Origin: a virus
Strand: one strand, 5' to 3'
DNA: 38,509 nt
IMG/VR virus record: IMGVR_UViG_3300012352_000396
Coordinates: 1 to 38,509 of that record
Shown here: piece by piece, positions 346 through 38,154 of the stretch
Numbering within the stretch: position 1 is the stretch's first letter
How the letters are laid out: each line of letters starts with the position of its first letter
Program-made: the position numbers and the translations under genes
Notes under the pieces: generated by a model
The model's input: the letters and a program-made list of their open reading frames with translations, nothing else
Databases searched by the model: none
Told to the model about the DNA's origin: nothing

Positions 346-678
346 ATGAAAAAAGCATTTTTTACAATTGGTGATATTGATGAAAAGTTCGAAGGTATTA
401 CTTCCGGTCAGCGTTGGAATGGGTGGGAGTGTCCGTATTTTGACATTGAAACAGCGCAAAAAATCCTCAGCACTTTGCAGGATGTTGAGGAAGCTAAAAA
501 ATGGGGATTTAGTTATTATATTTTTACTCCTGACAATTTATGTATACAAGAATTTCACGAAGATGGGATAGAAACGTATACAGCTGTAAATTTTGAGGGT
601 AAAAATTACTTTCCTATCGGATATTGTAATTGGGTATGGGAGTTGGCAAGGGAAGAAGAAGAAGAAGAAGAAGGTTAA
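346..678 (+). CDS. Hypothetical early protein, 110 aa, acidic poly-Glu C-terminus
   Basis: ATG-initiated ORF. The stop TAA (676-678) lies inside stem I of the first hammerhead motif. No family recognised. Confidence 0.7.
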   Translation: MKKAFFTIGDIDEKFEGITSGQRWNGWECPYFDIETAQKILSTLQDVEEAKKWGFSYYIFTPDNLCIQEFHEDGIETYTAVNFEGKNYFPIGYCNWVWELAREEEEEEEG

Positions 679-728
679 CTGACGAGGCTTAAATTAGCCG
701 AAACGGGGCAAAAAACCCCGTATTAACC
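673..728 (+). ncRNA. Hammerhead ribozyme motif, type I (copy 1); predicted cleavage after A722
   Basis: GGTTAA / CTGACGA / GGCT-TAAATT-AGCC / GAA / ACGGGG-CAAAAAA-CCCCGT / A / TTAACC. All invariant core positions are present, with a 6-bp stem I, 4-bp stem II and 6-bp stem III. Confidence 0.8.
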
Positions 729-744
729 AAAAAACTTTTATTTT

Positions 745-840
745 ATGACTAAGAAAGACAAAAACTTGCTTTTAATTGTGCTGCTTATTGCAGCCTTTGC
801 GCTGACCATTTCCGGCAATTCATCACCTGAGTGGTGGTAA
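745..840 (+). CDS. Small hydrophobic protein, 31 aa (MTKKDKNLLLIVLLIAAFALTISGNSSPEWW)
   Basis: Hand-translated; below the ORF-track cutoff. ATG lies 22 nt after the predicted ribozyme cleavage site, the stop abuts the next ribozyme, and there is one TM-like segment. Confidence 0.5.
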   Translation: MTKKDKNLLLIVLLIAAFALTISGNSSPEWW

Positions 841-895
841 GGTTAACTGATGAGGCTTGAATAGCCGAAACGGGGCAAAAAACCCCGTATTAACC
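841..895 (+). ncRNA. Hammerhead ribozyme motif, type I (copy 2); predicted cleavage after A889
   Basis: GGTTAA / CTGATGA / GGCT-TGAAT-AGCC / GAA / ACGGGG-CAAAAAA-CCCCGT / A / TTAACC. Confidence 0.8.
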
Positions 896-911
896 AATAA
901 AAAATTAAATT

Positions 912-1205
912 ATGATTACTCAGGAAATGTTTTTGAATGCTGAATTAAGCCAAATATCACAAGTTTACTACGGCAAAGATAGATGTTGCCGCTGTGGCTG
1001 TAAAGGTGTTTATACAAGCACAAGTTTTAATAATTGCCCTTCAAGCTTTGCAGTTATAAATGATTCCCTTGTATTAAAACGATTAAAAAAGGCTAAAAAT
1101 ATCGTTTTAAAAGGCGGTGATGTTGATTACGGCACAAGTTATGTAAACATAGTTACAGGTAAAGATTTGGCACTATGCTTTTATTTTGTTGATGTAAAAG
1201 GTTAG
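912..1205 (+). CDS. Hypothetical early protein, 97 aa, Cys cluster (CCRCGCKG)
   Basis: ATG ORF. The stop TAG (1203-1205) lies inside stem I of hammerhead copy 3. Confidence 0.7.
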   Translation: MITQEMFLNAELSQISQVYYGKDRCCRCGCKGVYTSTSFNNCPSSFAVINDSLVLKRLKKAKNIVLKGGDVDYGTSYVNIVTGKDLALCFYFVDVKG

Positions 1206-1256
1206 CTGATGAGGCTTAAATAGCCGAAACGGGGGTCAAAAAACCCCGTCTTAACC
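1200..1256 (+). ncRNA. Hammerhead ribozyme motif, type I (copy 3); predicted cleavage after C1250 (GUC triplet)
   Basis: GGTTAG / CTGATGA / GGCT-TAAAT-AGCC / GAA / ACGGGG-GTCAAAAAA-CCCCGT / C / TTAACC. The innermost stem I pair becomes G-U. Confidence 0.8.
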
Positions 1257-1270
1257 AAAAAAATATTATT

Positions 1271-1522
1271 ATGAAATTGTATTGCTTAAAAGATGTAGAA
1301 GAAGCCGTAATTGTAAAAGGTGCAAAATTGCATAAGTTTTACGGGGCTATGAATGCTCATTGGGAACTTGAATACCCTGATGGATCTAAATATTCAAAAA
1401 TTAGGAAGGGAACTGGTCAAAAGTTTTTTTCTAAGTATAGACAAAAGCTAATTATATGCAATTCAGGAGTTTCTATATCTCTATTCACTACTAAATCATT
1501 CAGGTTAACTGACGAGGCTTAA
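1271..1522 (+). CDS. Hypothetical early protein, 83 aa
   Basis: ATG ORF. It reads through stem I and the CUGAYGA core of hammerhead copy 4, and its stop TAA lies in loop II. Confidence 0.65.
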   Translation: MKLYCLKDVEEAVIVKGAKLHKFYGAMNAHWELEYPDGSKYSKIRKGTGQKFFSKYRQKLIICNSGVSISLFTTKSFRLTDEA

Positions 1523-1558
1523 TTAGCCGAAAGCAGGACAAAAATCCTGCTATTAACC
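1503..1558 (+). ncRNA. Hammerhead ribozyme motif, type I (copy 4); predicted cleavage after A1552
   Basis: GGTTAA / CTGACGA / GGCT-TAATT-AGCC / GAA / AGCAGGA-CAAAAA-TCCTGCT / A / TTAACC. Stem III is fully rewritten with compensatory changes. Confidence 0.8.
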
Positions 1559-1574
1559 AAAAAACTATTATTAT

Positions 1575-1751
1575 ATGTTTAAGTCTTATCAAATCACTAT
1601 TGGCAACCATTCACGTATGATTATGGGTTTAGATTTAAAAGATGCTATTAAGACAGCTTCATGGATCAAAAAATGGAATAACTACAAGGGTAAAACAACT
1701 GTAAAGTACTTAACTCCAAATCAAGTTTTTGATATATTAAAAAGCCTTTAG
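1575..1751 (+). CDS. Hypothetical early protein, 58 aa (MFKSYQITIGNHSRMIMGLDLKDAIKTASWIKKWNNYKGKTTVKYLTPNQVFDILKSL)
   Basis: Hand-translated; below the track cutoff. ATG lies 22 nt after the predicted cleavage site of copy 4. Confidence 0.55.
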   Translation: MFKSYQITIGNHSRMIMGLDLKDAIKTASWIKKWNNYKGKTTVKYLTPNQVFDILKSL

Positions 1752-8451: not shown

Positions 8452-8961
8452 TTAATCTATTTCTATTGGATAATAAAATTTGGCGTAGTTTATCTCTACG
8501 ACCTTTTTGTTTTTCTTAGCGGCTTCGGCTTGGCATATCTTACACCTCACCACATAACCATCATGCCCACTTTTGCTTCTTGAGAAGAACTTATATTCTT
8601 TCTCCTCATTACAAGTGTTACAAGCCTTTGTGCCTTCCTTGTGAGGTGGCTTTGGTGGTCTATTCCCTCTTTGATACGATGCTGCGCATTGACGACATTG
8701 AGAGTTATAACCACCTTTGTAATATGTTTTAATACAATAGTCGCTTAATGGTTTTACCTTTTGACACTTCGTACACTTTTTGCTTTCCATATACTTCTTT
8801 TTAACTCCTCTTTTTTGCCTTTCTGCACCTCTTGCAAGTTCTCTTCTACGTGCGTTATAGCATTCTTTGCAATTATTGTTGTTTTTTACAAGTGGCTTTA
8901 GTTCTTTGCAGGTGTTACAAGTCTTTGCCTCCATACGTTTGATTGTAGTATTGTTCTGCAT
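8452..8961 (-). CDS. Triple zinc-ribbon repeat protein (3 x CxxC-X12-20-CxxC)
   Basis: CNTCKELKP..CKEC, then CTKCQKVKP..CRQC, then CNTCNEEK..CKIC. No catalytic domain recognised. Confidence 0.7.
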   Translation of the reverse strand: MQNNTTIKRMEAKTCNTCKELKPLVKNNNNCKECYNARRRELARGAERQKRGVKKKYMESKKCTKCQKVKPLSDYCIKTYYKGGYNSQCRQCAASYQRGNRPPKPPHKEGTKACNTCNEEKEYKFFSRSKSGHDGYVVRCKICQAEAAKKNKKVVEINYAKFYYPIEID

Positions 8962-37410: not shown

Positions 37411-38154
37411 ATGTCTACAAATCATTTTGAAACAATTGTTACAATTTCTGAATTTAAGCCGGTTAAAAAATTATTGTCTGCCGGTGTAAGCAATGCCAAA
37501 TTAAGGAAATCCGAAATTCGCTCTTTCATCCTTTACTTAGCACCTGCATCTTTATCCGGAAAAAACGTTTGCCCTTATGCATCCACCGAATGTATAAAAT
37601 TATGTCTTAATACTGCCGGCATGGGCGTTTTTTCAAGCGTTCAACTTGCACGTATTAATAAGACTCTTTACATGATGAAAGACAGACAAGGTTTTTATGC
37701 TCAATTAGTAAAGGAAATTAGAAACGCCAATAAATTAGCCGCAAAGCAAGGTGAAAAGTTCGCAATCAGATTAAACGGAACGTCTGACCTTGACCATATC
37801 CAATTGATTAAGAATGTAACCGGTGTTGATGTCTTAACCGAATTTAAAAACATCATTTTTTATGATTATACCAAAGGGATAAACAGATTAAAAAAGTACT
37901 CAGGTACAAATTATGATTTGACTTTTAGCCGGTCTGAAACGAACGAAAATGATTGTATGGAAGCGTTAAAAATGGGCTTTAGGGTTGCTGTAGTTTTTAG
38001 CCATAAAAAACAATTACCTGATAATTTTTTAGGTCATAAAGTAATAAACGGGGATAATTCAGACTTCCGTCCGGCAGATGCAAAAAATGTGATAGTCGGC
38101 TTAACTGCAAAGGGCAAAGCAAAAAAAATCAAATCTGCTTTTGTCGTTTCTTAA
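37411..38154 (+). CDS. Conserved phage protein with Cys cluster, possibly Gp88-family; function unknown
   Basis: 247 aa. CPYASTECIKLCL...RLNGTSD pattern. The family assignment is from memory and is tentative. Confidence 0.7.
   Translation: MSTNHFETIVTISEFKPVKKLLSAGVSNAKLRKSEIRSFILYLAPASLSGKNVCPYASTECIKLCLNTAGMGVFSSVQLARINKTLYMMKDRQGFYAQLVKEIRNANKLAAKQGEKFAIRLNGTSDLDHIQLIKNVTGVDVLTEFKNIIFYDYTKGINRLKKYSGTNYDLTFSRSETNENDCMEALKMGFRVAVVFSHKKQLPDNFLGHKVINGDNSDFRPADAKNVIVGLTAKGKAKKIKSAFVVS

Follow-up and report, generated by a model that had tools for sequence, protein, structure and literature searches.

Four type I hammerhead ribozymes at the gene junctions of a small early gene block in a tailed phage with a probable Bacteroidota host

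Introduction

Clusters of hammerhead ribozymes around single prophage genes were described in 2011 by Perreault et al., who proposed that they process transcripts into single-gene mRNAs; similar clusters cleave in vitro and in E. coli (PMC3088659). The same paper describes a hammerhead variant in the early region of haloviruses HF1 and HF2, which cuts 13 nt before the start codon of an early helicase and no more than 3 nt from a mapped transcript end. In chrysoviruses and fusariviruses, type I hammerheads create a 5' end shortly before a start codon and promote translation initiation (PMC13725137). RiboJ is a synthetic insulator built on a self-cleaving ribozyme; it standardizes the 5' end, and in E. 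coli mRNA rises about twofold and protein two- to tenfold (PMC6206723). The role of bacterial and phage hammerheads is still called open in two reviews (PMC6155905, PMC6765202).

Here we analyze a locus in IMGVR_UViG_3300012352_000396; the window is the entire 38,509-base virus record. As in the clusters of Perreault et al., several hammerheads, here four on one strand, flank single, small, non-conserved genes in a phage, and the layout itself has been known since 2011. The present locus differs from those clusters in its four near-identical type I copies, its probable Bacteroidota-host phage, genes that enter the ribozyme, a fixed 20–22 nt leader free of Shine–Dalgarno (SD) sequence and strain-level gene loss at a ribozyme. 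In the portions of the clustered-hammerhead literature that we consulted, we found no report of genes entering the ribozyme together with a fixed SD-free leader. The HF1/HF2 ribozyme, by contrast, is a single core variant that heads a polycistronic RNA in an archaeal virus. The chrysovirus and fusarivirus ribozymes belong to eukaryotic RNA viruses with cap-independent initiation and show no clear tertiary contact, whereas the window is a DNA phage using bacterial ribosomes. RiboJ is engineered and leaves a 5' hairpin, whereas the window ribozymes leave a bare A-rich leader and lie between genes. The locus also differs from retrozymes, which are marked by long terminal repeats, target-site duplications and abundant circular RNA, since its repeat unit of only ~80 nt flanks unrelated genes. 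Integron cassettes are defined by attC sites and an IntI integrase; the junction repeat here is a hammerhead, and no integrase was found among the 20-odd proteins scanned, a set covering some of the smaller ORFs. To the known layout the present analysis adds the geometry of the ribozyme family, an account of upstream stops in three frames, the absence of genes that extend past the cut and, in one strain, a difference in gene content located at a ribozyme.

Results

Protein scans showed that the 38.5 kb genome, that of a tailed phage, encodes a capsid protein, portal, terminase, primase and helicase. A sequencing-run search located the window sequence in DNA datasets from freshwater metagenomes and listed no RNA run containing it, and cultured phage genomes gave no meaningful DNA match to positions 660–1600. 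We infer that the host probably belongs to Bacteroidota from the terminase matches, the absence of SD sequences and the occurrence of this form of ribozyme in Bacteroidota genomes. Where a host is named, the best terminase matches come mostly from Bacteroides phages (~34% identity). The GGUUAA ribozyme form occurs in Paraflavitalea, Niabella, Agriterribacter, Pedobacter and an uncultured Bacteroidetes genome; Bacteroidota account for six of nine records, and the other three are genome bins, possibly with stray phage contigs. In five candidate host genomes carrying this form, RNase E/G is present and RNase J is absent, as reported for Bacteroidota (PMC10234816).

Nearly all window genes are transcribed leftward, and five short ORFs form a small rightward block at 346–1751. 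A −7 promoter element of the Bacteroidota type (TAHHTTTG; PMC6847099 gives its consensus and spacing) lies at 315–322 and is the sole plus-strand match in 1–2400. Chance alone would yield many matches to so short a motif (32 expected in the window, 42 observed), and it is the position of this one that argues for a promoter. The predicted transcription start, at ~327–328, would give the first gene a leader of 18–19 nt, near the lengths of the ribozyme-made leaders described below. Just upstream of the element, a 32-nt direct repeat (two exact copies) and an 11–12 nt A/C-rich tandem array occupy 91–161 and 204–290 and are possible protein-binding sites. A perfect 29-nt tandem repeat, also just upstream of the operon, spans the contig ends (38225–38509 and 1–54, a circular junction) and has very deep coverage in sequencing run X1.

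All parts of the block lie on the plus strand. ORF1 (346–678, 110 aa) matches phrog_9945, of unknown function, and its stop codon TAA (676–678) forms the last three nucleotides of stem I of ribozyme 1 (672–729; stem I 673–678/723–728, core 679–685, stem-loop II 686–699, stem III 703–721, cut after 722 at GUA). Leader 1 (723–744, 22 nt) precedes ORF2 (745–840, 31 aa, a hydrophobic stretch, no family), which ends one base before stem I of ribozyme 2 (840–896; stem I 841–846/890–895, core 847–853, cut after 889 at GUA), the last base of its stop being the conserved A that precedes stem I. Leader 2 (890–911, 22 nt) is followed by ORF3 (912–1205, 97 aa, Cys-rich, weak match to phrog_5930), whose stop TAG ends stem I of ribozyme 3 (1199–1257; stem I 1200–1205/1251–1256 with one G-U pair, core 1206–1212, cut after 1250 at GUC). 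Beyond leader 3 (1251–1270, 20 nt), ORF4 (1271–1522, 83 aa, no family) reads through stem I, the core and stem II of ribozyme 4 (1502–1559; stem I 1503–1508/1553–1558, core 1509–1515, cut after 1552 at CUA) and stops in loop II (TAA, 1520–1522). Leader 4 (1553–1574, 22 nt) leads into ORF5 (1575–1751, 58 aa, no family). A terminator-like 16-bp hairpin with A/U-rich flanks (1767–1801), possibly serving both directions, probably ends the operon. The sequence-only reading of this DNA had proposed ribozymes at these four junctions, the four stop placements and leaders of 22, 22, 20 and 22 nt, and every position was right. The acidic C-terminal tail of ORF1 was considered as read-through junk and rejected, since several ORF1 homologues have the same ending.

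The core (CUGANGA, GAAA, UH) is intact in each of the four copies, and stems I, II and III measure 6, 4 and 6–7 bp. All four carry C3-U4-G5-A6-N7-G8-A9, G12-A13-A14, the A15.1-U16.1 pair and H17, and show the type I topology of three helices with stem I open and stems II and III closed. The conserved unit extends to stem I plus one base on each side, an A at 672, 840, 1199 and 1502 and an A at 729, 896, 1257 and 1559. When both strands of 50 Markov-shuffled versions of the window were searched, the motif turned up once, a chance rate of 0.02 per window. Run with filters off, a covariance model that had these same four copies among its training sequences returned the four and nothing else, neither extra nor decayed copies, in the window. 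Strain contigs carry an A to C change at the cleavage nucleotide of ribozymes 1 and 2 (722 and 889), where both letters are permitted.

An Rfam scan at gathering thresholds gave no match in the window. Ribozyme 3 is a weak match to RF03152 (RAGATH-1-hammerhead; 23.7 bits against a gathering score of 56.3); members of the wider family described here reach 33.4 bits with that model and 30.2 bits with RF00163 (Hammerhead_1; gathering score 34). The window ribozymes share the type I topology and core with both Rfam families. Unlike them, they and their relatives lack an upstream hairpin and have a fixed 6-bp stem I with a closing G-C followed by A·A; their stem II, of 4 bp, carries a U-N-A-N-U loop. 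They thus form a stereotyped hammerhead subfamily that falls below the Rfam cut-offs.

Pattern scans of viral contigs and other scans collected at least 394 distinct ribozymes of this family. With a pattern that fixed the core and three loop II bases but no stem, a Watson–Crick stem II was present in 107 of the 115 matches listed and a 6-bp stem I, in 50 different sequences, likewise in 107 of 115; among these listed matches, stem I is closed by G-C in 103 of 107 and continued by A·A in 106. The first loop II base is U in 244 of 247 members among the matches listed. In an alignment of 43 picked members all 516 of 516 cells pair, with 158 double-sided changes versus 44 in shuffles; these members were chosen as paired, so the 115-match pattern is the fairer test of pairing. 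Stems I and II covary, and stem III contributes only its two inner pairs to the count of double-sided changes. The fixed stem I length, the A·A and the U-N-A-N-U loop suggest a tertiary contact between stem I and loop II, of the kind that fast natural hammerheads require (PMC6155905). Taken together, stem covariation and fixed geometry are strong, if indirect, evidence of selection for cleavage.

Among the family loci listed, many of them short, 208 of 289 hold a single ribozyme. Arrays of eight are found at L073:2808-6440 and L102:5576-10950, and in the former five different stem I sequences covary inside one genome. Among the 38 loci of the nearest primase relatives, many of which end early, 10 have one ribozyme at about the same place and none has the array seen in the window; this four-copy array looks like a local expansion. 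In nine primase relatives the single ribozyme lies on the strand opposite the primase, mostly 0.4–1.9 kb past its end, and has a long stem III and a varied stem I.

We then examined where upstream genes end. Of the 343 members with an upstream gene among the matches listed, 91% have its stop no more than 30 nt before the core or inside the ribozyme, compared with 15% at shifted control positions. The stop falls within 24 nt before stem I in 104, straddles or lies inside stem I in 52, is the last stem I codon in 72, the UGA of the core in 60, and lies in stem-loop II in 25 and farther upstream in 30. All three frames meet a stop within the ribozyme in 173 of 247 members among the matches listed. 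A stop in stem I, which the earlier reading had singled out, is not a conserved design: just 45 of the 132 members (34%) found without fixing stem I have a stop at its end, genes abut the other members as closely, and of the 200 upstream genes in the GGUUAA subgroup no more than 55 stop at that codon. Overlap between stop and ribozyme is best read as packing plus built-in stops: in the tightly packed genomes of phages, genes abut or enter a ribozyme that supplies stops in all three frames.

One firm rule emerged, namely that translation ends before the cut. None of 185 non-redundant read-in genes crosses it, versus 16.5 expected from frame-specific rates, although related phages among these genes are not fully independent. 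Frame use declines with the length of the added tail, from 66–96 to 23, the frame through the core into loop II being the least used (23 of 185). Since a cut within a gene would give a non-stop mRNA, this result fits cleavage in vivo; it could also come from selection against long foreign C-terminal tails or against overlap with the next gene.

On the downstream side, 351 of 382 members among the matches listed have an ORF start no more than 50 nt past the cut. The listed members of the mainly GGUUAA set have a median leader of 21 nt and, aligned on the AUG, show A at −13, −12 and −11 (0.79, 0.87 and 0.76) and at −3 (0.71); A is also favored at −6 and G is almost absent. This profile agrees with the signature that marks translation initiation in Flavobacterium (PMC6847099). 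None of the four window leaders contains a G, and each has A at −13 to −11. The 36 other genes of the phage show A-12 (0.64) and A-3 (0.72), and none has an SD. In members with other stem I sequences an SD is often present, and the median leader is then 28 nt rather than 21 nt, which indicates that the leader follows the initiation mode of the host. The proposal that the SD-less A/U leader is a special product of the ribozyme was accordingly rejected: a host-like signature and a genome-wide lack of SD sequences mark it as a minimal host-type initiation region, ordinary for Bacteroidota. The leader consensus quoted with that proposal fits leaders 1 and 4 exactly and leaders 2 and 3 loosely.

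Nor did the leaders prove unusually open, as the description "unstructured" had implied. After cleavage their predicted opening energies are 4.3–8.2 kcal/mol, similar to the values for ordinary genes truncated at −21 (median 5.7). We also rejected an unmasking of the initiation region by cleavage: predicted energies fall from 5.1 to 3.9 kcal/mol in the family and from 6.9 to 5.7 in ordinary genes cut at −21, and accessibility is predicted to worsen upon cleavage in two of the four window leaders. A gain in accessibility beyond that of any truncation is thus not supported by the folding model. In at least seven loci an AUG lies within the 3' strand of stem I, 0–2 nt after the cut; a later AUG probably starts the gene in most of them, and nearly leaderless mRNAs are possible. 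In four other loci the stem I 5' strand recurs in the leader a few bases past the cut, and the leader could fold into a 5' hairpin after cleavage or compete with stem I.

In a related strain, gene content differs at the ribozymes. A 2,608-nt contig, ~98% identical over its aligned parts and taken from run X2 of another study, joins position 871 to 1232, so that ORF3 and its flanking half-ribozymes are absent and a hybrid ribozyme is left. In the same contig, 278 other letters replace 1582–1751, the stretch of ORF5 that begins right behind its start and includes its stop. Ribozymes 2 and 3 have at most 16 identical bases in common, too few for repeat collapse at an assembly word size that we assumed to be 31 letters, and the strain difference is a loss or gain of ORF3 with the joint inside ribozymes. 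A joint in run X1 from 747 to 839 was set aside; it has 30 letters on one side, unidentified sequence between and a 36-nt exact repeat alongside. The flanked genes are not constant: besides these strain variants, ORF2–ORF5 have no match in 387 loci of the family, and none of 46 loci with ORF1 homologues contains a type I hammerhead. Across related loci, 26 of 244 gene-content breakpoint ends lie in modules versus 9.3 expected, an enrichment confounded by conserved modules extending the alignments; the majority of breakpoints lie away from the ribozymes. These strain variants and the family-wide junction geometry bear out the idea of a reusable gene-junction cassette; the junction unit seems to serve at times as a crossover point and does not appear to be the main source of mosaicism.

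Discussion

We consider it probable that the four hammerheads cut one transcript into single-gene mRNAs with host-type leaders, insulation being the likely benefit. In this mechanism, the promoter at 315–322 would drive a transcript of ~1.48 kb across the five small early genes, and four cis-acting cuts would divide it into pieces of ~396, 167, 361, 302 and 253 nt. Each downstream gene would start with a 5'-OH and a 20–22 nt leader carrying the host initiation signal (A at −13 to −11), and each upstream piece would end in stem III with a 2',3'-cyclic phosphate. The promoter-made first leader being 18–19 nt long, each cut would copy the layout of the primary 5' end, giving the later genes what the promoter gives the first. 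A gene between two ribozymes could then be translated and decay independently of its neighbors. E. coli RNase E prefers 5'-monophosphate ends, so the 5'-OH should protect the mRNA from 5'-end-dependent decay, given a host that has RNase E/G and lacks RNase J. Crossovers at the repeats would also, on occasion, bring in or remove whole genes. The data directly show the sequence, its structure and covariation, the family geometry and the strain-level loss or gain of a gene; we infer transcription as a single unit, cleavage in vivo and the effects on stability and translation. Processing to monocistronic units had been suggested for this locus before: the ribozymes do lie at the junctions of one putative transcript and the products can be predicted, but the idea itself goes back to Perreault et al. 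(2011).

The stop placements bear on a translation-coupled switch, in which ribosomes terminating on stem I would gate folding, cleavage and downstream expression and the stem I stop would be selected for. Nearly all upstream stops are indeed no farther than a ribosome footprint from stem I or the core, ribozyme 3 retains its stem I stop through the G-U pair, and the stem I stop is the most used among GGUUAA members (55:36:12). In a folding model of naked RNA, stem I of ribozymes 3 and 4 is lost to competing pairings with the upstream coding sequence (for ribozyme 4, a predicted 4-bp hairpin at ~1499–1512), and the fold is predicted to return once that sequence is removed. The predicted loss counts against the cutting of the transcript at these two sites, although stem I probability is low family-wide in the same model. 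Since ribosomes pass over stem I and upstream sequence competes with it, some coupling of ribosomes to folding is physically likely. As the selected function of the stop it is nonetheless quite unlikely, given that only about a third of unbiased members stop there, that stop positions range from −25 to +17, that predicted folding does not clearly separate the stop classes and that packing is tight throughout the genome, with 21 of 33 gaps between listed genes no longer than 12 nt. A fate opposite to insulation, namely that the cuts, like that of the glmS ribozyme, destabilize early mRNA and make messages of early or toxic genes decay faster, is distinctly improbable. Decay of glmS mRNA depends on RNase J, which is absent from the five candidate host genomes; each cut leaves a complete, well-formed initiation region, and upstream pieces retain a G-C-rich hairpin. 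In favor of such a timer are the early-region position, the short products and the glmS precedent itself (PMC6765202).

The strain joint inside ribozymes 2 and 3, the ORF5 replacement, the breakpoint enrichment and the 36 identical bases shared by ribozymes 1 and 2 would also be expected if the ribozymes served chiefly to shuffle genes as portable DNA repeats, or to propagate themselves, with cleavage incidental. This we regard as very doubtful: the stems diverge with compensation, which lowers DNA homology, around a core, a cleavage triplet and A·A/loop II positions that are retained; only one of 122 gene-content events has both ends in modules; and no reverse transcriptase or integrase was found among the proteins scanned. 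Stem I helices of all four window ribozymes are cross-compatible, as are 85 of 114 adjacent pairs in arrays, so that the two ends of an excised monomer could in principle reassemble a hammerhead and be ligated to yield a circular mRNA. In unbiased arrays, however, just 21 of 37 pairs are compatible, and Perreault et al. looked for circles and found none (PMC3088659); circularization is highly improbable.

Processing into single-gene mRNAs may be extended into a broader proposal, unlikely in its full form, that the ribozyme-plus-leader unit is a phage socket for gene capture and expression. The unit would end entering frames, cut, and supply an initiation region that depends on the cut, as in chrysoviruses; upstream translation would set the cleavage rate, and crossovers between sockets would add or drop early genes. 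Beyond the literature as consulted, the family points to three rules: translation ends before the cut, the leader follows the host initiation mode, and the geometry is one that Rfam cut-offs miss. The locus offers a compact test case, with one promoter, four ribozymes and three stop placements in 1.5 kb, a length that could be cloned into Flavobacterium or Bacteroides. If the proposed processing is true, such ribozymes would be natural insulators for Bacteroidota engineering.

Other parts of the window yielded minor observations. A second rightward block (37411–38154) encodes a GP88-family protein (PF17338, phrog_1617), has its own terminator-like hairpin and contains no ribozyme. Repeats of 10–11 nt adjoin the primase stop at 1983–2292, where one run X1 contig differs at many positions; this putative origin thus varies among close strains. 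The gene at 8452–8961 encodes a 169-aa protein with matches to HNH/endonuclease VII and Lar-like restriction-alleviation proteins.
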